This document shows positions 1,928 to 15,907 of a stretch of 15,907 bases of DNA, in pieces. A program made the position numbers and the translations under genes. Location of the stretch: the NCBI GenBank assembly GCA_038153405.1, contig JAYOYH010000063.1:1-15907 (forward strand). The letters are read 5' to 3'. This stretch comes from Gemmatimonadota bacterium. Its GTDB lineage: Bacteria; Latescibacterota; UBA2968; UBA8231. Within the stretch, counting starts at the first letter, position 1, and each line of letters begins with the position of its first letter. Below the pieces are notes generated by a model. That model was not told the DNA's origin. It searched no databases and saw only the letters and a list, made by a program, of their open reading frames with translations.

Positions 1928-3082
1928 TCAGGCCAGCGCCTCGAGATACTTATAGCCGCTGCCCGTGTTAAACAGTACGATGCGCTCGTCGCCAGAGACC
2001 CTACCTCGCTCCTTCAGAGCGAGCAGTGCCGCCAGCGTTGCGCCCCCCTCGGGCGCGGGGAAAATACCCGTATACGCGGCGATGCGGTGGGACTGTTCGA
2101 CGAGGGCACTATCGCTGACGGCAATGGCCGTACCGCCGCTGGCGCGCAGCGCGCGCAGCATGAGAAAATCGCCGACGGCTGCTGGAACGCGCAAACCCGA
2201 AGCGACCGTGTGGGCTCCCGTCCACATTTCGGCTCCCTCGTCACCGCGTTCAAAGGCGCGCACGATGGGCGCACAGCCCTCGGCCTGAACCGACACCATG
2301 CGCGGCCGCTGGCTACCGATCAGTCCCATACATTCCATTTCTTCAAAGGCCTTCCACATGCCAATAAGGCCCGTGCCACCACCCGTTGGATAGACGATGA
2401 CGTCGGGGAGCTGCCAATCGAACTGCTCGGCCAATTCGTAGCCCATGGTCTTCTTGCCCTCTACGCGGTAGGGCTCTTTGAGCGTAGATACGTCAAACCA
2501 TCCTTCGCTCTCTTTGCGCGCGGCGACGATCTTGCCGCAGTCGCTTATAAGGCCGTCGACCATTTCCACTGTCGCCCCGCTCGAACGGCATTCAATAGCA
2601 AAGGCCGATGGCGTATCGCGTGGCATAAATACAAACGCTGGCAAGCCACAGGCCGCCGCATAGGCGGCGAGCGCACCGCCGGCGTTACCCGCCGTGGGGA
2701 TGGCCAACGCGCGCGCGCCGCGCGCACGCGCTGCGCTCACAGCAGCGGAAAGACCGCGCGCTTTAAACGAGCCGGTGGGATTGAGCGATTCGTCTTTGAT
2801 ATAGAGATTGGTAAAGCCCGCCCACGCACCGAGGCGCTCGACTCTGTGTAGCGGCGTAAACCCTTCGCCGAGCGAAACGATTTCATCGGTAGAGCGTATG
2901 GGCATTACTTCTCGATAGCGCCACATCGTAGGCGCGCGCTCCTTTAGGGCATCCGGTCGCAGCGTGGCAGCAGCCTTTTCCAGGTCGTAGCGCGCCAGCA
3001 GAGGTGCGCCGAGCGCAGAGAGATTATGCAACTCAGCAGCATCATAGGTGCTGCCATCCCGGGCGCATTCGAGATGGGTCAT
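1928..3082 (-). CDS. thrC: Threonine synthase (PLP-dependent, fold type II)
   Basis: Motifs SLGEGFTPL, KDESLNPTGSFKARG (PLP lysine), TAGNAG, EGKKT, YPTGGGTG, PEGGA and FNTGSGYKY. The true start is ATG 3082 (ATGA overlap with the nadD stop) or 3088; the ORF extension to 3460 overlaps nadD and looks spurious. Confidence 0.88.
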   Translation of the reverse strand: MTHLECARDGSTYDAAELHNLSALGAPLLARYDLEKAAATLRPDALKERAPTMWRYREVMPIRSTDEIVSLGEGFTPLHRVERLGAWAGFTNLYIKDESLNPTGSFKARGLSAAVSAARARGARALAIPTAGNAGGALAAYAAACGLPAFVFMPRDTPSAFAIECRSSGATVEMVDGLISDCGKIVAARKESEGWFDVSTLKEPYRVEGKKTMGYELAEQFDWQLPDVIVYPTGGGTGLIGMWKAFEEMECMGLIGSQRPRMVSVQAEGCAPIVRAFERGDEGAEMWTGAHTVASGLRVPAAVGDFLMLRALRASGGTAIAVSDSALVEQSHRIAAYTGIFPAPEGGATLAALLALKERGRVSGDERIVLFNTGSGYKYLEALA

Positions 3083-3663
3083 GTGCATGGGGTATAGAGT
3101 CCTTTTTCGCGAATGTAGCGCTCGACCGCATCGGGCACCATGGCCCGTACAGGCAAACCGCTGTGCAGGCGTTGGCGGATCTTCGTCGAGGACAGCTCGA
3201 TAAGTGGCGTATCGATAAAGTGCATGTGCCGCACCAATTCGGGGTCGACCTCGGCCTGTTCTGCGAGGCGCTGACCAGCTACCACAGTACACAGAGACAA
3301 GATGCCCTGCGGATCGTGCCACGTCGACATATGCGCGACATTGTCGCTGCCAATCACTAGGAAAAATGCGCTGTCGGGATATCGTTGATGCAGCTGGCGC
3401 AGCGTATCGACCGTATACGATTTGCCCGGACGATCCAACTCGATGCGCGAGGCAGAGCACGATGTGAGATCGGCAATTGCCAGTTCGACCATGGCGAAGC
3501 GGTCGTTGGAGTCGGCGTGCGTGCTGTCTTTATGAGGAGGGTCTGCGGCGGGAATAAAAACGATTTCATCGAGGGCTAGCGCCTCGCAGGCAAACAGCGC
3601 CAGCAGCACGTGCCCGTTGTGAACGGGATCAAACGTGCCGCCGATCAATCCGATGCGCTGCAC
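3079..3663 (-). CDS. nadD: Nicotinate-nucleotide adenylyltransferase
   Basis: Motifs GGTFDPVHNGH (HxGH), PPHK, SYTVDTL, IGSD, W(H)D and SSTKIR. Confidence 0.95.
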   Translation of the reverse strand: MQRIGLIGGTFDPVHNGHVLLALFACEALALDEIVFIPAADPPHKDSTHADSNDRFAMVELAIADLTSCSASRIELDRPGKSYTVDTLRQLHQRYPDSAFFLVIGSDNVAHMSTWHDPQGILSLCTVVAGQRLAEQAEVDPELVRHMHFIDTPLIELSSTKIRQRLHSGLPVRAMVPDAVERYIREKGLYTPCT

Positions 3664-3667
3664 CGCA

Positions 3668-4414
3668 CTACCCCGCCGAGGCGTTTAGCTGCGAGAGCGC
3701 TTCCTGCACTTCTTTCTTTAACTTGGCGTCTTCGCTGTCGCGCAGCACTTCTTCCCAGTGCTGCACGGCGCCATCAATGTTGTCTTCTGCACGGTCCAGT
3801 TCGCCTAGGCGAAACAGCGTGTAATAATACCAGGTCGTATCGGGATAGTCGCGCAACACGTCCTGAAAGGAAATGCGCGCCGCTTCCAAATAGCCCTGCC
3901 TCTGGTAGAGATAGGCACTGCGATAAATCTTCTCGGCCAGATTGTTGCGGCAGGTGACAATGCGCTCGCGCGCCGTCTCGACTAGCGACGAAGACGGATT
4001 GTCCTCGATGAAGTTGCGGAAGGCCATTAGCGCATCAAACGTTTCTTTCTGATCTAGGGCTGGCCGGCGCATTTGCTTAAAGTAGGACTCGCCTATTTTA
4101 AACTGCGCCTCTTCGGCCCACTGGCTAGCTGGATAGATATCGATGAGGCGCTGGTACTCGAAAGAGGCGTTTACGTAATCTTCGCTGCAAAAAAAGGATT
4201 CGGCCAGCAGATACTGCGACTCCGTGACGCGCTGCGAACCGGGGAAGTTGCTGACCAAACGCTGAAAGTGTTCGGACGCCTCCACGCAGCGCTTTTTCGC
4301 AAAGGCCTTTTGACCCTCGTCATAGTAGTAATCAGCGCCTTGCAACTTTTCCGGCGTGCTCGCACAGGCCGTTAAATAGCCAGCGACAGCGATAAGGGCA
4401 AAATATATAAGCAT
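3668..4414 (-). CDS. bamD: Outer membrane protein assembly factor BamD (TPR lipoprotein)
   Basis: Lipobox LTAC, five TPR-like units (FPGS, YPAS, NPSS and YPDT turns), the BamD-typical 'LDQKETFDA...F' segment, and a position next to nadD. Confidence 0.88.
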   Translation of the reverse strand: MLIYFALIAVAGYLTACASTPEKLQGADYYYDEGQKAFAKKRCVEASEHFQRLVSNFPGSQRVTESQYLLAESFFCSEDYVNASFEYQRLIDIYPASQWAEEAQFKIGESYFKQMRRPALDQKETFDALMAFRNFIEDNPSSSLVETARERIVTCRNNLAEKIYRSAYLYQRQGYLEAARISFQDVLRDYPDTTWYYYTLFRLGELDRAEDNIDGAVQHWEEVLRDSEDAKLKKEVQEALSQLNASAG

Positions 4415-4420
4415 AGGTAG

Positions 4421-5059
4421 TTAGCGATTGGAAAAGAATAGGTAGATTAGTCCGCCGAGCACAGTCGAGACGACCATGGGTTCGACGAACTTACTCCAGC
4501 TTTGTTCCTCTACTTCGGTCTGGGCAAATTTATAGGTTGAGTGCTGGAGTATTTCGAGTTGGTTTTTAGGTATGCGATCGGCGCGCAAGCGCGTGACTTC
4601 GTCCTGCCAGTAGACGATGTGGTCGCTTTCGCGGTTGAGGCGCAGAGCCAACGATGCCCGACTCTGGCGATCGGCGTGCGCGCCTCTTAGACCCGACTGT
4701 GCGGTAATGCCCATATCCAGTATACGAAAGGAAAAACGCATGCTCTCGGACCCGGCATTCGTCGAATCGGCCACTATGGAAAATCCGCGGTCGAGCAGGC
4801 ACTGCGCCAGCACGTGCTCGACCAGCCAGTTGGCATCATGGCGCCCCTGAGCGGCGATAAAGAGGGGAGCATCCGCTGCTTCGGCGGGCACCTCGAGCCC
4901 GGCCAGCGACTCATCGATGGCGTCTTCTACGGCGGCGACCAGGGCATCCATATTGCTCGGATAGGGAGCGATCGCCGCGGCGGAAAACGGGCCTATCAGC
5001 AACAGGGCAATAATCCGCCTCATCCCGCAGCGCAGCGACCGGGAAAATACATGCCCCAT
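4421..5059 (-). CDS. Hypothetical exported protein with a C-terminal membrane anchor
   Basis: The start is ATG 5059 (TAATG overlap with the upstream stop) or ATG 5023 (MRRIIALLLIGPFSAAA, signal-peptide-like). It ends in a hydrophobic helix, VEPMVVSTVLGGLIYLFFSNR. The ORF extension to 5326 overlaps the cpoB-like gene. Confidence 0.8.
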   Translation of the reverse strand: MGHVFSRSLRCGMRRIIALLLIGPFSAAAIAPYPSNMDALVAAVEDAIDESLAGLEVPAEAADAPLFIAAQGRHDANWLVEHVLAQCLLDRGFSIVADSTNAGSESMRFSFRILDMGITAQSGLRGAHADRQSRASLALRLNRESDHIVYWQDEVTRLRADRIPKNQLEILQHSTYKFAQTEVEEQSWSKFVEPMVVSTVLGGLIYLFFSNR

Positions 5060-5757
5060 TACAGGCCGCCGAGATATTTTAGCTCTTTGCGAGCAGTAGC
5101 AACGTATTCGCTTTCGGAGAACTCGTCCAGCAGCTTGCGAAAGGCGGCAATCGCCTGATCGCGCTCGCCAAGTGCTAAGTAGCAACGCCCTACTTTTAGC
5201 TGGGCATCGTCGGCTTTTTCCGTCTTGGAAAAGGCAAAGACCTTGGTGAACTCGGCTAATGCCTGGCGAAATCGTCCTAGCCCGTAGTAGCACTCGCCCT
5301 TCCAATACTGCGCGTTGTCGGCCCACTCACCGTAGGGAGCCGCCGCCAGAACGCGGTCAAACTGCACTACGGCCTGCTCGTACTCCTTTTGGTTGTAGAT
5401 GGCCAGCGCATTCTGATAGAGCGAAAGCGCGTCGTCGGCCCTGTTGCGAATGGCGTCGGGCGGACGCAGCGGACGCGTGTGCAGCGAATCCAAGCGCGCG
5501 CGCAGACTCTGGGTCTCTTCGCGCAGGGCACCCAGTTGCTGGCGCATTTCGGCAGCGCTTTCTTCTGCCTGGCGCAGGCGATCGGCCATGGCGCGCTCGC
5601 GGTCGTACGACGACTCGACGGCTCGCTTGAGCGCCTCGACGTCTTCGCGCTGTTCGTTCTGCCAAGTATCCAAACGCTGGTCTACCTGACCCGGCGTTGC
5701 GCAAGCGGCCCAGCCCAGCAGGAGAGCACAAAGAGGTATTTTTGCGTGCATAGACAT
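5059..5757 (-). CDS. cpoB: Tol-Pal system protein YbgF/CpoB-like lipoprotein (coiled coil plus 3 TPR)
   Basis: Signal peptide with lipobox-like WAAC, an N-terminal coiled coil, and the CpoB-type motifs ADNAQYWKGECYY, KADDAQLKVG and FSESEY. Confidence 0.8.
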   Translation of the reverse strand: MSMHAKIPLCALLLGWAACATPGQVDQRLDTWQNEQREDVEALKRAVESSYDRERAMADRLRQAEESAAEMRQQLGALREETQSLRARLDSLHTRPLRPPDAIRNRADDALSLYQNALAIYNQKEYEQAVVQFDRVLAAAPYGEWADNAQYWKGECYYGLGRFRQALAEFTKVFAFSKTEKADDAQLKVGRCYLALGERDQAIAAFRKLLDEFSESEYVATARKELKYLGGL

Positions 5758-5817: not shown

Positions 5818-8598
5818 TTATTTGCTCTCTGCGCGAAATACCAAGTCCTCGGGGGGATTGAGCGCAAACTCCTCGCAGCGATCGGCGTAGAGGGCAGACG
5901 GTCCGTCGTCCGGCACAATTTTTAACGCATCTTCAAAAAACGCGCGCGCCTCGTTGAATTCGTATTTCCAGTAGGCTTCCAGACCGCTCTTGTAGAGCGC
6001 CAATACCTGCATCATTTCCTCGTTCAATTCGCCCTTGCGCTCCAGCACTTCGTAGGCGACGACGGGCTCTTCCTTACCGACGACCTGAATCAAGTCGAGT
6101 TGGCGCGCTTCGATCAAATCCTTTACCTGCTCATAGATCTGATCGTTTACCATGATATTGGTGCCATAAATTTTCTGTCCGCTTTCAAAGCGTGCGGCGA
6201 GGTTCACAGTATCGCCCATCATGGTGTAGTCGGTGCGGCTGCGCGATCCCATATTGCCGACGATCATTGGACCAGCCGTGATGCCAATGCGCACCTGTGC
6301 GAAGGTGCGCCCCTGACCCTGCCAGCGGTCGCGCAGTTCTTCGAGACGCGGCGGAATGGCGCCCGGCTCGTTCCAGCGCTTGCGCAACTCGACAAGCATT
6401 TTCTGCTGGTCGATGCAGGCCATCACCGCCCGCGTCGCATGATCGTCGTAATAGAGCGGCGCACCGAAGAATGCAACGATGGCATCGCCTTCGAATTTGT
6501 CGATGGTTCCGCCGTAGCCCTCGATTATATCGCACATCTCGGTGAGATAGCCGTTGATAAAATCGACGAGTTCGGCCGGCGTCAAACACTCAGAGATAGT
6601 CGAAAAGCTAGCAATATCGGAGAAGAACGCCGTCATCACGCGCTCTTCGCCGCCTAGCTGATTGACCATGTCCGGGTTTTGCATGATCTGATCGACGACG
6701 GCAGGCGACAGATAGTGACCAAAGGCACCTTGGACGAATTCCTTCTCCTTCTCCTTTATGATGTAACCGTAAATCGTCAGCGCCAGATAGCCCACTACGA
6801 TAGTTAGCATCGGGCCTATAAACTCCAGCCAGAACCCATGCGTGAAGGAGTATAGGACGAGGACGGAGTAGACCGCTCCCAGCGCGCCAATGAGCAAGGC
6901 GCCCTGCAGCACCTTCAGCCGCGGCACGGCCAGCGACATGACCAAGCCCAGCAGTAGAATAAGCGCTACGCGTGTCCATACCGGCGTGCGGCTTATAAAG
7001 GCGTCGGTCAATATGGTATTGAGCACGTTGGAATAGATGCCGACCATGGGATAATTGCCCTGGAACGGGATCACGCTAAGGTCGGTGCTACCCGTTGACG
7101 TCTGCCCGTAGAACAGGATCTTGCCCTGGAGTTCATCCGGCGTGATAAGGCGCCCCTGTGCGCTGCGATAGGGATAGAAGTAGAGCGGACGCGCCTTCTC
7201 TTGGACTTTGCCGTCGACCAAGTGCCGCTGGGCAAAGTAGAGACTCTGCAAGAGATCTTCGCCGTCTTCTTGGGGCATTGCAGCCTGTAGTCCGGCCAGA
7301 TCAATATCGGGATTTTCCTCCAATAGCGCTGCGACGCGGTTGTTGCGGCGTATCTGCTCGTACATCAGGAGCTGCGCTTCTTGGGGCTCTTTGACGCCCT
7401 TTGAAGCCCAAAATGCACCCGCTTCTTGGTCTGGCTGCTTGCGCACGGCCGCTTCAATACCGCCTGCCTGCATCCAGGTCACCAACGCACCGCGCACCGC
7501 GCTCTGATCGTCATAGCCCTGCGCGGCCATCAGCCCGGGCAGGGGGCGCGGATTGCGGCGCAAGGCCGGGTCGTCAACGACCAGTTCCTTTATTTTATCG
7601 AGTAGTTTTTCGCGATCTTCGCGCTGGGCGGCCCGGCGCAGCGCTATGTGCGGATAGCGCACAAAGGTCTCCTCCCAGCGGCCGGTCCAGTTGACATTCA
7701 TCGTGCCGTGCTCGTCGATGGGAATGTTTATATCGCGTACGCTTCCATCGGGAAAGCGCGCATTGGGCAGAAGCACGCGGTCGCCGGGCCACACCTTTAC
7801 ATCGGCTAGATTAACCTGCAGGTGATCACAGGCCACATTCAGAGCAATTGATGGGAATAGAATGTCCTTGTACTGGAAGACCACCGGATAGCGCCTGCGC
7901 GCACCGTCAAAGTCCTCCGTCGTCTGAGCGTAGGAATAACCGCGCGCGGCGTTGCGCAGAACGGAAATGGGCGGTTCGAAATTGGTGGCTCGGCTAATAC
8001 CGCTCTCTTCGACGGGAACCATCAAGCGCGGCGAATTGGCTCGTATGTTTTCGAGCACGCCCTGCTTTTCCGCGTCGAGCGGTGGGTAATTCAGCTCTCC
8101 CTCTGACTCTTCTTCCTGCACGTTGAGGTACTGAGCCAAATACACGTTGTTGGCCTTTTCAATGGCTCGGCCAAAACGCGCATCGTAGTCGGCTTCAGCG
8201 AGCAGCCGTTCTATGCCCTTTTCGTCAATAGATGACAGGCCCCGAATCTGCTTTTCCGTAAGCAGTTTGGTGATGGGTTCGGGATAGTAGATATCAAATC
8301 CAATGCGCTCGGCTCCATATTCACCCATGATGCGCACGACATCGATATACTCAACGCGCGTCCAGTTTTGCCAACGCCCTTCTATTTCCAACGTCTGGTC
8401 GTCGATCTCTATCGTGCCGAGATTCGGATTCATCTGCGGGAGGCCAAAGATGGAATTGCGGATATTGAAGCGCCAGTCATAGCTGACCAACTCCGCGCGC
8501 TCATAGGCTTTAGTCAGGGCAAAAAGCAGTACCAGCAGGCCGACTATGGGTCCCAGATAAAGCTGTAAGCGAGGATCGTCTTTACTTGATGCCGCCAT
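5818..8598 (-). CDS. CHASE2-domain class III adenylate cyclase with C-terminal TPR-like helices
   Basis: N-terminal TM; CHASE2 motifs (YDWRF, IEIDDQTL...GRW..W.R, IGFDIYY, DFDGARRRYP, GKILFYG, GIYSNVLNTIL); three TMs; cyclase motifs FSDIASFS (D661), DKFEGDA (K701, D705) and DYTMMGDTVNLAARFE (T792, N799, R803). RBS GGAGG at 8610-8606. Confidence 0.93.
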   Translation of the reverse strand: MAASSKDDPRLQLYLGPIVGLLVLLFALTKAYERAELVSYDWRFNIRNSIFGLPQMNPNLGTIEIDDQTLEIEGRWQNWTRVEYIDVVRIMGEYGAERIGFDIYYPEPITKLLTEKQIRGLSSIDEKGIERLLAEADYDARFGRAIEKANNVYLAQYLNVQEEESEGELNYPPLDAEKQGVLENIRANSPRLMVPVEESGISRATNFEPPISVLRNAARGYSYAQTTEDFDGARRRYPVVFQYKDILFPSIALNVACDHLQVNLADVKVWPGDRVLLPNARFPDGSVRDINIPIDEHGTMNVNWTGRWEETFVRYPHIALRRAAQREDREKLLDKIKELVVDDPALRRNPRPLPGLMAAQGYDDQSAVRGALVTWMQAGGIEAAVRKQPDQEAGAFWASKGVKEPQEAQLLMYEQIRRNNRVAALLEENPDIDLAGLQAAMPQEDGEDLLQSLYFAQRHLVDGKVQEKARPLYFYPYRSAQGRLITPDELQGKILFYGQTSTGSTDLSVIPFQGNYPMVGIYSNVLNTILTDAFISRTPVWTRVALILLLGLVMSLAVPRLKVLQGALLIGALGAVYSVLVLYSFTHGFWLEFIGPMLTIVVGYLALTIYGYIIKEKEKEFVQGAFGHYLSPAVVDQIMQNPDMVNQLGGEERVMTAFFSDIASFSTISECLTPAELVDFINGYLTEMCDIIEGYGGTIDKFEGDAIVAFFGAPLYYDDHATRAVMACIDQQKMLVELRKRWNEPGAIPPRLEELRDRWQGQGRTFAQVRIGITAGPMIVGNMGSRSRTDYTMMGDTVNLAARFESGQKIYGTNIMVNDQIYEQVKDLIEARQLDLIQVVGKEEPVVAYEVLERKGELNEEMMQVLALYKSGLEAYWKYEFNEARAFFEDALKIVPDDGPSALYADRCEEFALNPPEDLVFRAESK

Positions 8599-8694: not shown

Positions 8695-9207
8695 CTATTC
8701 GACGCTCAGCTGGCTTACTTTATTTTGCGCTTTCGCCGCATAGGGCGACTGCGGAAATTCCTTGGCGACCTGCGAGTAATAATCGCGCGCCTGCGCCGGC
8801 TTGCCGAGCTTTTCGTAGCACTGGGCGACAAAAAACTTTTGCTTGGGCGCATTGGCCGATTTGGGATCCTTGCTCAATGCATCCTGCAGCGTGCTGATGG
8901 CCTTCAGCAACTTGTCCTGGGACGGTGCGCGCTTGCCGCCTTTGTAATAGAGTTTGGCGAGGATATTGTCCTCAGCCTCGGCGCCGCGCACACCGGCCAC
9001 CGTGACCGTTTCCTGCAGCTTGAACTCCTCTTCCTTGACCATGTCGTCGACCTGAGTCCAAACCGTATTGAGCCAATCCTCATCGCCTCCGGCCGCCGCT
9101 GCATCTGCGGCTTCGGCGGGTTGAGCTTCGGCCTCGCCCTGCTGTGCAGCGACGGGGGCTGCACCCAATAGGGCAATGAGCAAATAAAAAAACTTGGCAT
9201 TCTTCAT
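8695..9207 (-). CDS. Small secreted protein with a C-terminal TPR pair (170 aa)
   Basis: RBS AAGGAGGT ahead of ATG 9207, a Sec signal peptide MKNAKFFYLLIALLGAAPVAA, an acidic Ala-rich linker, a TVTVAGVRGAE motif, and TPR 'FFVAQCYEKLGKPAQARDYYSQVAKEFPQSPYA'. Confidence 0.88.
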   Translation of the reverse strand: MKNAKFFYLLIALLGAAPVAAQQGEAEAQPAEAADAAAAGGDEDWLNTVWTQVDDMVKEEEFKLQETVTVAGVRGAEAEDNILAKLYYKGGKRAPSQDKLLKAISTLQDALSKDPKSANAPKQKFFVAQCYEKLGKPAQARDYYSQVAKEFPQSPYAAKAQNKVSQLSVE

Positions 9208-9353: not shown

Positions 9354-10380
9354 TTATTCCACTTCGTCTAGGAAGTTTAAAAAGCCCTGATAGCGCTCAT
9401 CGGATTCAACGACTTGGCGATAGATAACCTGCGCTTCGTTGCGGCGCCCCTGCAAATAGCGCACGATCGCCATATTGAGCAGCACGCCGGGGTGCGAGGG
9501 CATCAGGCGTTCTGCCTCTTCCAACAGCGCGTAAGCTTCTTCGTACTGGCCGCTATGGCAGAGGACTACGGCCTTGGCGTTGTAGGCATCGCCCAGCTGT
9601 GGGTCGGCGGCCAGCGCCTTGTCGAGGCGCTCTAGCGCGCGACTGTACTCTTCCTGCTGCATATAGGCCGAGGCGATGCGATAGAGTTCCTCAGCCGATT
9701 CGACCTCGGCGAGAAAGTCGAGCAAGCCGCCATAAGCATCGTCTTCGCTGATAATCTGCTGGTAGAGCGCGTCGGCGCGATCGCGATCGCCCTTCAAATA
9801 GTAGATTAGCGCAATGTTGAGGCGGAAACCCGTCTGGCCGGGATCGATTGAGGCCGCCTTCTCGTAGAGCGAGAGGGCTTCGTCGTACTGGCCCTTGTGC
9901 GTAAAGACCACGCCCTTGGCATTGTAGGCATCGGCAAACTGCTCGTCGGCATTGATGGCCTCTTCAAACTGGGCCATCGCTAGATCAAAGCGATTCTGGC
10001 GCAGATAGGCCGTGCCGATATCATAGGATTCCTGCGCATTGCCCACTTCGGCCAGAAAGTCGAAGAGTTCCATATAGGAACCGTCGCGTGCAACGACTTC
10101 CTGAAAAAGCCGGTCGTAGGTCTCGCGCTCACCCTTCAAGTAGTAAGTGAGGGCGATATTCATACGCACGCCGGTGTTGTCGTCAAACTGCAGCGCGCGG
10201 CGATAGTATTCGAGCGACTCGTCGTACTGACCCTTGTGAGTCAGGATAACGCCCAAGGCATTGAGCGCGTCAAAATTCTCGGGCTGCATGGCCAGCACGC
10301 GCTCGAACATCGAAAAGGCTTTTTCTAGGTGGTTGACGCGCAGATAGGCCGCGCCGGCATCGTAGAGCCCTTCGGGCGTG
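9354..10380 (-). repeat. Three tandem approx. 114-aa TPR super-repeats inside the CDS
   Basis: Each unit ends in (D/N)FL(A/D)EV. The terminal Val codons at 10044, 9702 and 9360 are exactly 342 nt apart, and the units share H(K/S)GQY(D/E)E and N(I/M)A..(Y)YL.G motifs. Confidence 0.85.
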
Positions 10381-12401
10381 TCGAGCGAGACCGACGAGCC
10401 CAGCGCAATCTGGTCGACGCGCTGGTCAAAGAAGGCGATGTCGCGATTGAGCAAGCTGTCCATCAGCGCCGACTCAGGCAGTGAGACGGTGCGCGGCGGC
10501 AGCGTAGCCGGCTTGTAGGTCTGGAACAGCTGCTGCACGTAAAGTTCCTCAATCAGCTTGCGCGGCTTGAGGCGCTTGTACTCGGCAGCGCCGTTGCGCC
10601 AGGCATCGGCGAACGTAAAGCCATACATCGTGGTCTCTACCGGAATCCACACGCGCCCCTGCCAGACCACATATTCAGCGGTCGACAGAAAGTGATCCTC
10701 GGCGCGGTCGGGCGAAATACCGCTATCGAACATCATGTAGATGTGGCCCTTACCCGGATCGTTGGCCTCGAGAAAAGCCGTATCGATACTCAGGTTTTCC
10801 AGCAGCGACGCAAAGAGCACCGTCAGGTCGTCACAGTCACCAATTTTCGTCTCGACCCCTTCGGGCTTTTCCAACAATTCGCTGGGATACTGAACTGTGT
10901 CGAAGATCGTCTTGTCGTCGGAGACGCTGGCAAAGGGCGTCTTCTGGTCGGCTTGGTAGCGAATGCGATAGGAACCCAGCGCATTGAAGAGGATTGTCGC
11001 CTTACCGATGTTGGAGCGGTTAAACTTCTCGGCCAGCAGGTCGTTATAGCGCTGCACGAGACCGCGCGCCAAGCTGGCCACCGACATGTCTTCCGGAGTG
11101 ACAAAGGCGGCGGCCATGCCCTTTACGTTCCAACTCAGCTTGCCCTTGCCGGCTACGTAGATGCGCTCGAGCTGCTTTTCGGCAAACTGATCTTGGCGGT
11201 TGCGCTGATAGTCGACGCGCACGATCGGCGTTACAAAGTTGTCGTAATAGGCCTCATCTCTATTAAACAAATCGGTATCAAACGTCACCTTAAAGGTGTA
11301 TTTCTCGTTGCTCTGCGGCGGCAGCGTAACCTGTTCACGGTGCGGCACGCTCATCACCTTGGGCAAGAACAGCGAGACGCTCGCCTCAATCGCTTCGGTC
11401 GCCGAATTGGAAATAACGACGTCGAAAAAGTCGTTTTCCTGATAGTGCGGATAGAGCGAGCGGAAAACCGGATTGGGGCGAATCAGCGCGTCCTTGATAT
11501 TGATTACGCGCGGATTGTAGGCCAGCGCAATCGACGTATAGTGCGTCGGCGCTAAAACGGGGTGGCGCTCGTAGGCGTAATCGATCTGCGCAAAACGGTA
11601 CTTGAGCCCGATGCCAAAGGTGGTCGTCGTAGCATCGGCGAGGGACTCGGGCGTGTCGCGCTCGGTTGCCACGCCGGCGCGCAGCGCCAGCAGACCGCGC
11701 AACCAGTATTCGGCTCCTAGGTGAAACGAATCGTCTATATCTGCGCCGATGGTCAGTCCCTCAACCGGTCGGTGAGCGATGCCAAAACGATAGCGCGTAT
11801 CGTACACCGGCTCCGACACGCCGCTCTCGTACTGCAGGTTGGTGCCGCCCAGATCCTGCGCGACCAACGCCAGGCGAATGCCGAAGGGCAGAGGAACGAG
11901 CAGGCCTACATCAAAACCCCAGCCCGAGGCGCTGCCCAAGCTATTGCCGTCTAGATCGACGCTAAACGAGCGATACTTGCCGCTCACGCCAATGGCCGTA
12001 TTGCCGATGAGGGGACGCAGGCGCTGAATGCCATTGCGATAGCCGTAGGCAAAGGCCAGTTTGTTTTGAGCGGTGTTGAGTTCGGAATCGTCAAAGCCAA
12101 GATAGAGCCAGTCGACGCCAATGGCGTGCTGGTCGCCAACCGGCAGCACGTAGTTCAAGTAGGAATGATTGAGCCCCAGACCGTAGCGGTCGGCATAGGT
12201 CAGACCAATTTCCTGTCGCTGCAGCGACGCCAGCGCGGCCGGATTCCAGTGGGCAGCGCTCGCATCGGAGGCTACTGCACTGAAGGCCCCGCCCATGCCA
12301 ATGGCCCGCACGCCCACCATCTCCTGACGCGGCGCGGCCAGTGTCGCCTGGGCGGCGATTAGCGCGATGCCCATGATTGCTATTGCACTCCGATAGTTCA
12401 C
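9354..12401 (-). CDS. PorV/PorQ-like outer membrane beta-barrel fused to a beta-rich linker domain, a transglutaminase-like domain and TPR repeats
   Basis: GTG start overlapping the upstream TGA; signal peptide; GVRAIGMGGAFSAVASDASAAHWNPAAL (PorV/FadL-family N-terminus); amphipathic strands to about aa 295; motifs GDCDDL, GHIY and WIPVETT; about nine TPRs at the C-terminus. Confidence 0.85.
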   Translation of the reverse strand: MNYRSAIAIMGIALIAAQATLAAPRQEMVGVRAIGMGGAFSAVASDASAAHWNPAALASLQRQEIGLTYADRYGLGLNHSYLNYVLPVGDQHAIGVDWLYLGFDDSELNTAQNKLAFAYGYRNGIQRLRPLIGNTAIGVSGKYRSFSVDLDGNSLGSASGWGFDVGLLVPLPFGIRLALVAQDLGGTNLQYESGVSEPVYDTRYRFGIAHRPVEGLTIGADIDDSFHLGAEYWLRGLLALRAGVATERDTPESLADATTTTFGIGLKYRFAQIDYAYERHPVLAPTHYTSIALAYNPRVINIKDALIRPNPVFRSLYPHYQENDFFDVVISNSATEAIEASVSLFLPKVMSVPHREQVTLPPQSNEKYTFKVTFDTDLFNRDEAYYDNFVTPIVRVDYQRNRQDQFAEKQLERIYVAGKGKLSWNVKGMAAAFVTPEDMSVASLARGLVQRYNDLLAEKFNRSNIGKATILFNALGSYRIRYQADQKTPFASVSDDKTIFDTVQYPSELLEKPEGVETKIGDCDDLTVLFASLLENLSIDTAFLEANDPGKGHIYMMFDSGISPDRAEDHFLSTAEYVVWQGRVWIPVETTMYGFTFADAWRNGAAEYKRLKPRKLIEELYVQQLFQTYKPATLPPRTVSLPESALMDSLLNRDIAFFDQRVDQIALGSSVSLDTPEGLYDAGAAYLRVNHLEKAFSMFERVLAMQPENFDALNALGVILTHKGQYDESLEYYRRALQFDDNTGVRMNIALTYYLKGERETYDRLFQEVVARDGSYMELFDFLAEVGNAQESYDIGTAYLRQNRFDLAMAQFEEAINADEQFADAYNAKGVVFTHKGQYDEALSLYEKAASIDPGQTGFRLNIALIYYLKGDRDRADALYQQIISEDDAYGGLLDFLAEVESAEELYRIASAYMQQEEYSRALERLDKALAADPQLGDAYNAKAVVLCHSGQYEEAYALLEEAERLMPSHPGVLLNMAIVRYLQGRRNEAQVIYRQVVESDERYQGFLNFLDEVE

Positions 12402-13858
12402 GGTTCCACCACCGTTTCCTGGTCGCCGCCCTGCAGTCCGGTGAGGTTTACGAAAGAAGTCGAGCCGGGAAAGCGCACTTCGAGGCGGTAGTCCGATCCA
12501 CCTAACACGCCAAACGAAAGGCCCGCGGCATCGGTCACATAGCGGAAGCCCACAAGGCGATCGCCGGCGTCAAATAGGCTCACGCTGGCCCCCAAGCCCG
12601 TTGCATTGGCCCCGCCCTGCTGACCGCCCTTGCCCAGCACCTGCACTTTGATAAAGCTGCTGCCCGGCGTCTCGTTCTGGAAGAGCAGATTGCCGCTGCC
12701 AAAGCCATCGGTCATGTAGAGATCGGGCGCGCCGTTACCGTCGTAATCGCCCCAGCGAGCGGCAAAGTGGACGCTGCCGCCCGTGGGCAAGTTGGCAAAC
12801 GCCGTAACGTTGTCGAAGGTGCCGTCGTTGTTGTTGGCATAGAGAATGTCGCGCTGAAACTGTCGATCGCTGCCGGTGGCCAAGTACAGGTCGAGAAAAC
12901 CATCGCCGTCGTAGTCAGCCCAGTCGGCCATCGAAGTAAACCAACCGGCATTATCTATGCGCACGCCGGCCACATCGGCCACATCGACAAAGGCGTTTCC
13001 CCCGTCGTTTTCATAGAGCGCATTGGCGCCGATATTGGCCACGTAGAGGTCGAGGTCGCCGTCGTTGTCGTAGTCACCCCAGGCGCCGTTGAGCCCGATT
13101 TCGTTGTTGGCCACACCGAGCGCAGCCGACACCTCTGAAAAGGAACCATCGGAATTTAAATCGTTGCGGTAAAACTGATTTTCCTGCTCGCGATTGACAG
13201 TGTACAGGTCGGGGTCGCCGTCGCCGTCGTAATCGGCCCACAGCACGGCGTTGGTGTCGCGGCCATCGGCCACGTCGAGGTCGGTCACCGGGGTAAACGT
13301 GCCGTCCCCGTTGTTATTGTATAGCTCATTGGCGAAGTAGAACTTACCCAAATAAAAGTCGACGTAGCCATCGCCGTTATAATCGCCCCATCCCACGGAT
13401 GTGACGTTGCCGCGGCGCTCCAAGTTGACCAGACCGCGACTGCGTCCCACCTCGATAAAAGTGCCGTCGCCCTGGTTTTGGTAAAGAAAGTCTTGGGCGT
13501 AAAAATCGGCAATGTAGAGATCGAGATCGCCGTCGTTGTCGTAGTCGGCAAAGGCCGCCGCTACGCTGTTGCCGTTATTGGCCACCCCGGCCGCGGCCGC
13601 CGCATCGACAAAAGACCCATCGCCCTGGTTTTGAAAGAGCGCGTTGATCGGGTTAGTAACCGCCGTGCCCCAGTTGGTCGTATAGAGGTCGAGATCGCCG
13701 TCCCCATCGTAGTCGCCCCAGGCCAAATTCGTACTAAACAGCCCGGCGTTGAGCGTGCCGCTAACGCCCGACAGGTTCTGGAAGGTCTGCGCAGCAACGG
13801 AGCCGCTCAAGAGGATTGAGGTCAGCGCGGCGCTGAGTATGTAGGTTCGCAAGCGCAT
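12398..13858 (-). CDS. Secreted FG-GAP/VCBS-repeat beta-propeller protein (CRTAC1/ASPIC-UnbV-like)
   Basis: Signal peptide ending VAA-Q; seven (W/F)(G/A)DY(D/N)xxGxxD(L/F)Y Ca-binding repeats, most followed by N.GDG(T/S)F-type turns; a short ASPIC/UnbV-like C-terminal domain (GLGASVSL...FGV...EVRFP). Confidence 0.9.
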   Translation of the reverse strand: MRLRTYILSAALTSILLSGSVAAQTFQNLSGVSGTLNAGLFSTNLAWGDYDGDGDLDLYTTNWGTAVTNPINALFQNQGDGSFVDAAAAAGVANNGNSVAAAFADYDNDGDLDLYIADFYAQDFLYQNQGDGTFIEVGRSRGLVNLERRGNVTSVGWGDYNGDGYVDFYLGKFYFANELYNNNGDGTFTPVTDLDVADGRDTNAVLWADYDGDGDPDLYTVNREQENQFYRNDLNSDGSFSEVSAALGVANNEIGLNGAWGDYDNDGDLDLYVANIGANALYENDGGNAFVDVADVAGVRIDNAGWFTSMADWADYDGDGFLDLYLATGSDRQFQRDILYANNNDGTFDNVTAFANLPTGGSVHFAARWGDYDGNGAPDLYMTDGFGSGNLLFQNETPGSSFIKVQVLGKGGQQGGANATGLGASVSLFDAGDRLVGFRYVTDAAGLSFGVLGGSDYRLEVRFPGSTSFVNLTGLQGGDQETVVEP

Positions 13859-13859
13859 A

Positions 13860-15907
13860 TTACCTCACCACAGCGACGGTTTTCTCGCGGCGCACGTCGC
13901 CGGCATTGACGACCACGATATAGAGACCGCTCGACACGGCCCGACGATCTTCGTCGAGCCCGTTCCACTTGAGCGATATGCGACCCGGCGCCATCGGCTC
14001 ATCGCGAACGACGACGCGCTCCAACTTGCCGGCGCTGTTGTACACGCGCACCGTCACGTCGGCCGGACCGCTCAAATCAAACGAGATATCGGTTTCGCCG
14101 CGCAGCGTGGCGCTGCCGGGTGCAAAGGCGCGCGGCTGGCAGTCGAGGTCGCGAATTGCCAAATCGCCAACAGCCGTCGATAAGTCTTCAAAAATAGCGA
14201 AAGTGCCCAACTGATCGACCGCCGTGCGCACCACGTTGGCCTGCGGATCAACGCTGCCGCCGATGCGCAACCACTGGCCGCTCTCGTCGGAGCGGAAGAT
14301 GGCCAGATGCGCAGGATCGCGATCGCCCAACTCTTCGGCGCTGTAGTGCATCGTCAGCGTGGCGCGTTTGGCCAGCGCGCCGACCTGTGCCCGCACGGAA
14401 TAGGCCGCCGTTACCTGCGTCGTCTCTTGGGCGAGCTTACCCACCCCAGCCGCGATCCGGCGAATGGCGATTTCACTGCTGCCAGCCGGCAGGGCGTTGG
14501 GCGGAAAGTAGAGCTCGAGCGTGCCGCTGGCATTCTTCACGTTTCCGCCCTGGCGCGCGTCGGCGAGGCTGGTCGCCGTGCGAAAGCTCCAGCTGTAGCC
14601 CTGCGTTGCCAGTTCGCCAAGAACCTGTGCATCCATCGAGATCGTATACTCAGTGAACGGCTTTAACCCACCGGCGATCGAGAAGCTGATAACCGCACCC
14701 GTTGAATCGGCGCCAAAACCCGTCAACGTCACCACCTCGGACGCGGCAGCTGAATCGGCCAACGAGCGCGCCGAAATCTGGAAGTCACGCGCCAACTGCC
14801 GGGCAACGGGCGCCGAAAAGGCGATCTGCACGTTGGACGAAGCCAGGCCGATGCCCTCTTCCCCGTTGGACGGCGTCGTTCCGACGACGCGCGGCACTTC
14901 GGTGGTAAAGGACCAGTTGAGATCTTCAAGGCCAATGGCCGATGCCAGCGGGCCGCTGGCCAACGCCTGCGCGCTGGCGCTATACGCCGCACCGGAGCGC
15001 AGTTCAACGCTGGGAAAGCTGACGGTAAAGGTCTGCGGATCGTAGGAAAACTCGTCGCTGGCCAGCGGAATCAGTGCCCCTCCGCGACGCAAGCGAAAAT
15101 TCTGGTTGTTGATCAGCGCCGGATCGAGCGGGCCAGAAAAAATCACCTGCAGGCGCTGAGGACCCGGCGGCACGGTAGCCTCTGCGGCGGGTCTGGTCGC
15201 CACGGGGCTAGGCACGCGCGTGGCAAAATCCCAATTGTAAGCGGCGCCGTCGCCCTGCAGCGGACCGCCAATATCCGAAGACAAGCGCACCGAGTAGGCA
15301 CTGCCCGGCTTAAGCCCTTCGCTGGCATTAAAGCTCAGCACGCTGTTGCCCGGGTCAAAGGCCGGAGTTGTAATGGGAATGGCAATACCACCCTGCAACA
15401 GCACGACGGCCCCCTCGCTGCGCAGCGCTTCTTCATCGATTGATCCGTCGAACTGAGCGCTAATCGCAGTACCCATATCAATCACAGTCGTATCGCTCGA
15501 TGTCGGCGCGGTCCCCTCTAACACCGGCACGGCCGAGCTAAAACTAATTGTCTGCACCTGACCCGAGCCCAGCGGACCGCTGACGCTGGGCGCAATCTGC
15601 AGCTCGTAGCGCGTACCTACGCGCCAGCCGCCGGCCGGTGCAATCCCATACAGGTTATCTCCGCGCGAAACCGGATCGCCGGCGCGCACTTCGACGGCCT
15701 GGCCAAACGCACTCAGCACAAAGCTCGACGTATTCAACTCGTCCGAATCGACCGGCGCGCTAAACTGCAGCGTCAGCTCTTCGAAATCCACGCCAACCGA
15801 CGCCGAGCCGCTGGCCGGCGCGCTTCCTTCCAACACCGGCACCACTGTGCTGAAACTAATTGTCTGCACCTGACCCGAGCCCAGCGGACCGCTGACGCTG
15901 GGCGCAA
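13860..15907 (-). CDS. Large surface protein, 5'-partial: tandem bacterial Ig-like (Big_5/SbsA-type) domains, a ZU5-like domain and a FlgD-Ig/T9SS-like C-terminal domain
   Basis: The frame is open to the window edge (APSVSGPLGSGQVQ...), so the 'start' at 15869 is an internal GTG. Four complete approx. 105-aa units (VP....T.P...F...D...L..G..Y...GPL...W.F.T); a ZU5-like segment (GG.V...L.FPPNAL...L.IF...W...V.....GTFAIF); and the C-terminus VRVYNSAGKL...KWNGLDEDRRAVSSGLYIVVV...KTVAVVR. Confidence 0.85.
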   Translation of the reverse strand, partial: APSVSGPLGSGQVQTISFSTVVPVLEGSAPASGSASVGVDFEELTLQFSAPVDSDELNTSSFVLSAFGQAVEVRAGDPVSRGDNLYGIAPAGGWRVGTRYELQIAPSVSGPLGSGQVQTISFSSAVPVLEGTAPTSSDTTVIDMGTAISAQFDGSIDEEALRSEGAVVLLQGGIAIPITTPAFDPGNSVLSFNASEGLKPGSAYSVRLSSDIGGPLQGDGAAYNWDFATRVPSPVATRPAAEATVPPGPQRLQVIFSGPLDPALINNQNFRLRRGGALIPLASDEFSYDPQTFTVSFPSVELRSGAAYSASAQALASGPLASAIGLEDLNWSFTTEVPRVVGTTPSNGEEGIGLASSNVQIAFSAPVARQLARDFQISARSLADSAAASEVVTLTGFGADSTGAVISFSIAGGLKPFTEYTISMDAQVLGELATQGYSWSFRTATSLADARQGGNVKNASGTLELYFPPNALPAGSSEIAIRRIAAGVGKLAQETTQVTAAYSVRAQVGALAKRATLTMHYSAEELGDRDPAHLAIFRSDESGQWLRIGGSVDPQANVVRTAVDQLGTFAIFEDLSTAVGDLAIRDLDCQPRAFAPGSATLRGETDISFDLSGPADVTVRVYNSAGKLERVVVRDEPMAPGRISLKWNGLDEDRRAVSSGLYIVVVNAGDVRREKTVAVVR
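15541..15907. repeat. 55-bp exact direct repeat (15541-15595 and 15853-15907), period 312 nt
   Basis: AAACTAATTGTCTGCACCTGACCCGAGCCCAGCGGACCGCTGACGCTGGGCGCAA occurs twice, with partial identity extending leftward (AACACCGGCAC). The second copy is cut by the window end. Confidence 0.95.

Follow-up and report, generated by a model that had tools for sequence, protein, structure and literature searches.

The 15,907-nucleotide stretch of DNA analysed here (the window; contig JAYOYH010000063.1, from a member of the Latescibacterota) encodes on its minus strand a protein that joins a predicted outer-membrane barrel of the PorV/PorQ family to a transglutaminase-like enzyme domain and a tail of TPR units. 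The operon that contains this fusion comprises, in order, a gene for a large FG-GAP/Big_5 cargo protein, one for an FG-GAP protein, the fusion gene, and genes for a 170-residue secreted partner and a CHASE2 adenylate cyclase. We are confident, short of certainty, that fusion, partner and cyclase act in one pathway. More specifically, we propose that the fusion is an outside-in receptor-protease that cuts the partner, and that the cut end activates the CHASE2 cyclase, a complete chain of events whose chances we consider to be about even.

Architecture and integrity of the fusion

The fusion gene begins with a GTG start at position 12401 and continues as a single open frame, without an internal stop. 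Its parts are listed below.

9354..12401, minus strand: fusion gene, 1015 residues, with signal peptide, PorV/PorQ-family barrel, Ig-like domain, transglutaminase-like domain and TPR tail
12336..12401, minus strand: predicted Sec signal peptide, residues 1-22, from sequence and a hydrophobicity scan (hydrophobic 5-24, ends ATLA)
11517..12335, minus strand: 14-strand barrel with N-terminal WNPA hatch, residues 23-295, from profile and model
11148..11516, minus strand: beta-rich Ig-like domain, residues 296-418, from the model; travels with the enzyme domain
10482..11147, minus strand: transglutaminase-like domain, residues 419-640, GDCDD...H...WIPVET
10833..10835, minus strand: Cys523, predicted nucleophile at a helix N-terminus, present in 120 of the 120 homologues listed
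10743..10745, minus strand: His553, predicted catalytic His, present in 117 of the 120 homologues listed and replaced in one clade only
10635..10637, minus strand: Glu589, predicted third triad residue, present in 119 of the 120 homologues listed
9357..10376, minus strand: TPR tail, three units of about 110 residues, passing Pfam cut-offs

This open reading frame (ORF) encodes one genuine, conserved polypeptide. At least 93% of residues 1-670 are covered by 118 of the 120 homologues listed (one row being the window's own protein), at 41-100% identity, and the TPR tail of close relatives ranges from 1 to 5 units. The junction between barrel and Ig-like domain is bridged, with no differences, by contigs of two other studies (X7, 11253-11875; X9, 11318-11610). 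An earlier note on this DNA, made from its letters, had pointed to 11500-11530 as the place where an assembly artefact might hide; a chimera is ruled out by the homologue coverage across the junction and by these contigs. Parts of the fusion, partner and cargo genes are also overlapped by RNA contigs from one metatranscriptome, which we do not use as evidence of expression.

An AlphaFold model of the fusion from a 130-row alignment (mean predicted local distance difference test score, pLDDT, 90.8; predicted template-modelling score, pTM, 0.59) renders the N-terminal region as a barrel of 14 strands with a hatch. The strands run up to THYTSIALAY, and the earlier note had indeed placed their end near residue 295. 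Beyond it the model has an Ig-like domain, an alpha/beta domain and helical repeats, the same succession of beta-rich, transglutaminase-like and TPR parts that the note had proposed. Its description of a PorV/PorQ-like barrel with an extension of about 720 residues is thus borne out by profile score, model and homologue coverage. The fusion had also been thought unusual, which proved mistaken, as the family is widespread in the Latescibacterota (some deposited as Gemmatimonadetes), KSB1, Marinimicrobia and Zixibacteria; a more distant barrel fusion is labelled Spirochaetota (1/10 looked up with a taxon).

A barrel of the PorV/PorQ family

Residues 23-295 pass the NCBIfam profile PorV_fam, NF033709 (104.4 bits, cut-off 90), and fall below the cut-offs of the PorV equivalog NF033710 (37.6 versus 250 bits), of PorQ (35.9 versus 220) and of Pfam Toluene_X, the FadL/TodX family PF03349 (24.1 versus 29.7 bits). 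The sole PDB sequence match is to PorV (E 0.012). When the model was compared by VIA-align with 48,161 solved chains, PorV 6h3i_F ranked highest (Z 30.2, root-mean-square deviation 2.5, 266 aligned), tied with a FadL homologue (Z 30.1). Two of the 14 modelled strands are split in the DSSP line. The loop-2 sequence GFDDxEL aligns with G114-F115 of PorV, and its Gly and Phe are kept in 108 and 92, respectively, of the 120 homologues listed. No match of the fusion to the PorU profile NF033707 occurs among the 51 matches in the genome. The fusion belongs to the broad PorV/PorQ family and, by the profile and domain tests applied, is not PorV, PorU, LapG, FadL or NsrA.

An even strand count puts both termini of such a barrel on the same, short-turn side. 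Because the model has 14 strands, with short turns on the side of both termini, the last 720 residues are predicted to lie in the periplasm, in agreement with the periplasmic tether for enzyme and TPRs that had been suggested from the letters.

PorV binds the C-terminal domains (CTDs) of its cargo on its outer loops through N87 and F115, and a lysine of the CTD binds PorV (PMC10994853). The fusion barrel probably binds cargo as well, given that a CTD gene adjoins it in 29 of 29 loci with full context and that the loop-2 Gly-Phe is kept.

A transglutaminase-like enzyme in a mobile cassette

Pfam recognizes the enzyme domain weakly (DUF553, E 0.16), and the ESM Atlas links it at 0.95 and 0.94 to clusters in which 12-28% of members carry Transglut_core or DUF553. 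In the model, a helix begins at Cys523 (within GDCDD) and a strand at His553, while Glu589 comes just past the conserved strand after that. The 386 domain rows, which are partly redundant, comprise 370 with C-H-E, 7 gapped and 9 differing. Motif and model place the domain in the transglutaminase-like superfamily. No other region of the fusion is as well conserved: 48 of its 220 columns reach at least 97%, compared with 14 of 235 in the barrel (residues 61-295) and 0 of 225 in the distal TPRs; on this conservation, we reject a pseudo-enzyme in the window's copy. The BTLCP (LapG family) Pfam profile gave no match to the fusion at E up to 10, and the third residue is Glu, where BTLCP/LapG enzymes have a C-H-D triad. 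Domain scans found no FecR domain in the fusion. The Foldseek matches listed for the whole model were all of TPR type, and the VIA-align matches cover just barrel and TPRs.

The Ig-enzyme unit, usually with TPRs behind it, is a mobile cassette found in 1945 clusters (50% identity, E up to 0.001). Among the best 150 of these, a barrel is present in 44 and absent from 106, and GDCDD occurs in 147. Some of the 27 non-barrel cassette proteins that were scanned have Reg_prop/Y_Y_Y or NHL propellers, and one has a STAND NTPase. An internal hydrophobic helix ahead of the cassette is found in only 2 of the 150 representatives, both STAND-NTPase versions (one a look-alike), which fits an extracytoplasmic enzyme. 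Two proteins, P0162 and P0244, join a STAND NTPase (nSTAND2 in P0162), a membrane helix and the cassette, a transmembrane form with a cytoplasmic NTPase. The window's genome has a second copy of the cassette (L031, G000:C78:8151-12533), located behind Reg_prop propellers and Y_Y_Y and without a membrane helix; this copy could be a second sensor that feeds the single partner and cyclase. Databases name the cassette just 'tetratricopeptide repeat protein', and our proposal would supply it with a function.

The secreted partner and the CHASE2 cyclase

The two genes downstream of the fusion, and the motif that we propose connects them, are as follows.

8695..9207, minus strand: small secreted partner, 170 residues, with conserved helix, TVAGVRGAEAED motif and C-terminal TPR
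8983..8997, minus strand: AGVRG motif, partner residues 71-75, the proposed cleavage site and putative CHASE2 ligand end
5818..8598, minus strand: CHASE2-domain class III adenylate cyclase, 926 residues, membrane-anchored

The partner starts at ATG 9207 behind a GGAGG site. In it a conserved helix leads through a short linker to AGVRG, a motif present in 64 of 64 sequences of a locus-derived alignment; of the motif positions, A71 and R74 never vary across an alignment of 71 rows, and the others are conserved in at least 90%. The ESM Atlas gave no usable match for the motif region, and AG[VI]RG occurs in 8 of the 4357 ORFs of the window's genome. In the cyclase, D661, K701, D705, N799 and R803 are invariant in 49 rows. 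We take these to be the catalytic residues of class III enzymes, and cyclic AMP (cAMP) is for this reason the likely output.

Gene order is the same in Latescibacterota, KSB1 and Zixibacteria and rearranged in Marinimicrobia. Among 80 loci, the barrel is present in 71, and the partner in 56 of the 63 barrel loci whose downstream sequence extends for 700 bp or more. The 29 full-context loci, all with the CTD gene, include 24 with the cyclase and 24 with the partner. Across 151 genomes of the phylum, the enzyme cassette occurs in 60, the full partner in 55 (after removal of 5 weak TPR-only matches) and this CHASE2 family in 56; the genomes with partner or CHASE2 all lie inside the cassette's 60, and 53 have all three, tallies that are description and not statistic because kin are not independent. 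In an enzyme tree of 48 hand-picked rows with a midpoint root, the operon-type enzymes (24 of 48) are set off by a branch with 100/99 support, on whose other side lie the paralogous barrel fusions and the non-barrel cassettes.

Departures from the usual arrangement occur. In G153 the partner gene has moved next to the CHASE2 gene, at a distance from the fusion, and in G154 fusion, partner and CHASE2 gene are all present but apart. In G105 (L140/L141) the fusion gene is split into two pieces that lie about 37 kb from each other; transposase-like ORFs mark the breaks, and partner and cyclase are intact. Second partner copies (TAAGVRG, TAGGVRG) lie remote from CHASE2 genes in G077, G045 and G143 (L137, L138, L139).

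Two genomes of one genus (G078 and G087, 92-93% complete, in 1 and 10 contigs) connect the three components by their joint decay. Both keep cargo, fusion and partner, and no CHASE2 domain was found in either. The catalytic His of their fusion is replaced by Arg, and their partner has SAGVPPARQ in place of VAGVRGAEA, having lost both RG and the acidic tail that ends the motif. The 379 ungapped domain rows (partly redundant) contain 5 losses of the His, and every one falls in the single derived, nested clade (100/100) to which these two genomes belong. Given that these three changes coincide, we consider catalysis, motif and cyclase to be tied together.

The motif beside other CHASE2 genes

We also surveyed 10 hand-picked loci on proteobacterial plasmids with CHASE2-type genes, where the CHASE2 domain was not Pfam-confirmed in each. 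The protein encoded directly upstream has [IV]RG in 7 of the 10 (AGIRG-A twice, AGVRG-T twice, AVRG-T, AAIRG-T and SVRG-T), and six of these seven proteins count as FecR by annotation or domain scan. Two of the seven read VAGVRG-T. What stands out is that a non-FecR partner keeps this same hexapeptide beside CHASE2, when by chance AG[VI]RG turns up in 8 of the 4357 ORFs of the window's genome.

Two CHASE2 loci pair a protease with a small secreted protein that has a G-x-x-R linker. One, on a Niveispirillum plasmid (L133:2600-8272), encodes a TPR-CHAT protease, a small secreted LGAVR protein without a Pfam match and a CHASE2-type cyclase. The other (L153:6730-15568, in G009) encodes Caspase plus DUF4384, a secreted 300-residue HGMAR protein, a CHASE2-cNMP-binding protein and a CHASE2 cyclase. 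The AAIRG-T protein (L156, 1197 residues, directly upstream of cyaK, with FecR and TPR) is presumably NsrA. This identification draws on position, length and the S7 legend of PMC7529298. For comparison, FecR of Escherichia coli cleaves itself at G181-T182 (PMC12036975).

A proposed outside-in mechanism

The fusion, its triad, the operon and a T9SS (type IX secretion system, with SprA, PorU and PorV) in the same genome are established, and from these we propose the following chain. The barrel would serve the co-encoded FG-GAP/Big_5 cargo as its own shuttle and as its anchor at the cell surface, with the CTD held on the outer loops. Occupancy by cargo, or a ligand caught by the cargo, would be relayed through barrel and Ig-like domain to the enzyme, which would cleave the partner in or beside AGVRG while the TPR tail docks the substrate. 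The freed end (...AGVR or ...AGVRG) would then bind CHASE2 and switch on cAMP synthesis. Parts of this chain have precedents, in that LapG-type enzymes cleave at [T/A/P]AAG after a targeting helix (PMC13090378), cargo-shuttle gene pairs are known in T9SS (PMC12618676) and NsrA signals to CyaK (PMC7529298, PMC13001267).

We offer a broader version only tentatively, as somewhat less probable than the chain just described. It holds that a T9SS-exported surface sensor on a PorV-type barrel controls the fused protease, that the ...AGVR(G) end of a pro-peptide is the CHASE2 ligand, and that CHASE2 domains generally read Arg- or Arg-Gly-ended peptides made by varied machines. If true, such ends would come from FecR self-cleavage, a caspase, CHAT or the enzyme of the fusion, and NsrA-to-CyaK signalling would be explained as well.

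Several observations weigh against these proposals. The [IV]RG motif is lacking in 3 of the 10 surveyed loci (one has LGAVR instead), which were hand-picked. We take [IV]RG[T] to be a general feature of the FecR family, which means that the 7 of 10 cannot stand as independent proof that CHASE2 is bound. The geometry of the triad was judged from the secondary structure of a predicted model, and a PDB sequence search with residues 296-670 gave 0 hits. Of the 57 upstream cargo C-termini, only 26 have a lysine that matches the PorV-binding lysine. The joint loss happened just once in evolution, with only 2 of the 5 rows tied to a genome, and the genomes tallied are likewise related by descent. The triad is also intact in a second clade of barrel fusions and in many non-barrel cassettes, where neither partner nor cyclase is close by, and paralogous fusions with intact triads adjoin Reg_prop/CTD cargo with no nearby partner. 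Finally, G009 and G002 have fusions of the paralogous type and CHASE2 genes, the partner is undetectable there, and the enzyme must therefore act on other substrates in these two genomes.

Alternative explanations

A T9SS is encoded in the same genome as the operon. The window's genome has SprA (also present in 5 of 5 other genomes checked) and, on C91, PorU (665.7 bits, cut-off 420) beside a canonical PorV-family gene; its PorV-family matches number ten in all, and cargo-type CTDs occur in dozens of its proteins. Given a separate PorU-PorV pair and SprA, the fusion is neither the housekeeping shuttle nor the housekeeping sortase. The earlier note had left open outside-in signalling or cargo processing, and the partner, the cyclase and their joint loss favour the former. 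A sortase-like role, in which the enzyme removes the CTD from the co-encoded cargo or anchors it and the cyclase is a co-regulated neighbour, would account for the cargo gene at 29 of 29 full-context loci, cyclase-less paralogues included. We nevertheless regard it as doubtful, since PorU-PorV and SprA are encoded separately and the enzyme is predicted to be periplasmic, facing away from surface-held cargo; moreover, G078 and G087 keep an intact cargo gene though the catalytic His is gone. Still less probable, and by some distance, is a FadL-like import channel with a periplasmic hydrolase attached that would act on a small molecule or peptide as it enters. FadL homologues match the modelled structure as closely as PorV does, the fusion retains the NPA hatch and the FadL-like proteins of Treponema bear periplasmic TPR bundles (PMC8407342), but the sequence passes PorV_fam and fails Toluene_X, the cassette is barrel-free in 106 of 150 representatives, and the partner motif and joint loss would be left unexplained.

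The rival that we take most seriously, while still thinking it unlikely, runs from inside to outside in the manner of Lap systems: the CHASE2 cyclase or the partner would bind and regulate the enzyme, AGVRG would serve docking or inhibition, and the output would be release or remodelling of the surface cargo. LapG and DvhG are periplasmic transglutaminase-like proteases under inner-membrane receptors (PMC13090378), the cargo is the most constant neighbour, and the joint loss is compatible with any shared pathway. However, the LapD/DvhD receptors are degenerate, whereas the cyclase has its catalytic residues in place and hence the look of an output; a T9SS-type signal lies at the C-terminus of the cargo, with no periplasmic retention module seen; and the motif also occurs beside CHASE2 genes with no such enzyme nearby. 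The chemistry itself could differ, as the transglutaminase-like superfamily spans proteases as well as transferases and deamidases. Cross-linking or modification of the partner (or the cyclase) by an acyl-transferase or deamidase, with CHASE2 reading the change, would suit the Glu of the triad, where LapG-type proteases have Asp, and the conservation of the partner on either side of RG. Yet the invariant motif offers no Gln or Lys, and the pairing of other CHASE2 loci with caspase, CHAT or C39 proteases or FecR domains points to cleavage, such that we consider this version improbable, though less so than a sortase-like role.

Cargo and neighbouring genes

Upstream of the fusion, the window contains two further genes of the operon.

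12398..13858, minus strand: secreted FG-GAP repeat protein, 486 residues, with a 4-base overlap with the fusion start
13860..15907, minus strand: C-terminal part of the large T9SS-type cargo (Big_5 repeats, FlgD-Ig/type A-like CTD)

The 486-residue protein is absent from Marinimicrobia-type loci. The cargo gene runs on past the end of the window, across a scaffold gap, and looks split into two ORFs (to position 20506 of G000:C63), where relatives have one protein of 1843-2405 residues. A frameshift is ruled out, as the apparent split is due to a run of N in the repeated Big_5 units just past the window. Other samples vary at clustered sites in 15652-15750, as expected for repeats. The wider T9SS-like system, here in a non-Bacteroidota genome, comprises genes on C29 and C91 and about 50 others (SprA, PorU-PorV, FlgD-Ig/type A-like CTDs).

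Downstream of the cyclase, on the minus strand at 3079-5757, are genes for a CpoB/YbgF-like TPR lipoprotein, a family-less protein (4421-5326), a BamD-like and a NadD-like protein, with a threonine synthase-like gene and a HAMP hybrid kinase beyond. The 3079-5757 run is probably outside the system, because it is kept in family-level relatives only. The operon also appears in records labelled Enterobacterales and Thaumarchaeota (L054, L109), which are probably mislabelled or mis-binned contigs.

Comparison with known systems

The ligand or sensing function of CHASE2 was stated as unknown in 2016 (PMC5192318), and the accessible portions of the NsrA papers (PMC7529298, PMC13001267) give no mechanism for how CyaK is reached. 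If true, our proposed pathway would point to the long-sought signal for CHASE2 sensors, and the T9SS shuttle fold would gain a signalling role. The CHASE2 question can be put to the test without growing the organism, since the operon yields a peptide short enough to synthesize and, both of them soluble, a sensor domain and an enzyme whose triad is named. A literature search, with most subscription papers outside its reach, found no description of the fusion or of a CHASE2 peptide ligand, and the architecture is not described in the portions seen of PMC8195603, PMC5192318 and PMC11285876.

The closest structural likeness is to PorV of Flavobacterium johnsoniae (PDB 6H3I), with which the fusion shares the 14-strand barrel, the NPA hatch and the loop-2 Gly-Phe, and to the PorV/PorQ family at large, in the neighbouring CTD cargo and the presence of SprA. 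It differs in its shorter barrel, in its 720 residues of enzyme and TPRs and in its failure to reach the equivalog cut-offs; PorV is a stand-alone barrel beside porU, a place taken in the window's genome by the gene on C91. The PorP/SprF shuttles of T9SS are also dedicated barrels encoded with their cargo, but they serve type B CTDs and no enzyme is described on them (PMC12618676), whereas the cargo CTD here is FlgD-Ig/type A-like. A barrel with a periplasmic TPR tail is not new, since TP0548, TP0859 and TP0865 of Treponema pallidum, which are FadL-like, have been modelled as 14-strand hatch barrels with a presumed periplasmic C-terminal TPR bundle; for these proposed lipid importers, no Ig or catalytic domain is described in the portion available (PMC8407342).

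LapG and DvhG (BTLCP) resemble the fusion in having a transglutaminase-like enzyme with acidic residues flanking the Cys, and the candidate substrate here likewise has a helix followed by a small-residue xxAG motif. They have a C-H-D triad and a cyclic di-GMP receptor, in contrast to the C-H-E triad, outer-membrane barrel and, by sequence, catalytically intact cAMP cyclase of the present system. By analogy, the fusion appears to work most like NsrA with CyaK/CyaD of Sinorhizobium meliloti (PMC7529298, PMC13001267), where an outer-membrane barrel protein with TPRs likewise has a CHASE2 adenylate cyclase as its neighbour, a link that in the fusion's case is genetic only. L156, the probable NsrA, has FecR, then TPR, then a C-terminal barrel and no transglutaminase-like domain, whereas the fusion has an N-terminal PorV-type barrel, a second protein unrelated to FecR bears the motif, and the unit includes a T9SS cargo. 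With its enzyme on a barrel, its T9SS cargo link and its peptide partner, for which the literature search gave no earlier description, the system would be an undescribed variant of cell-surface signalling.

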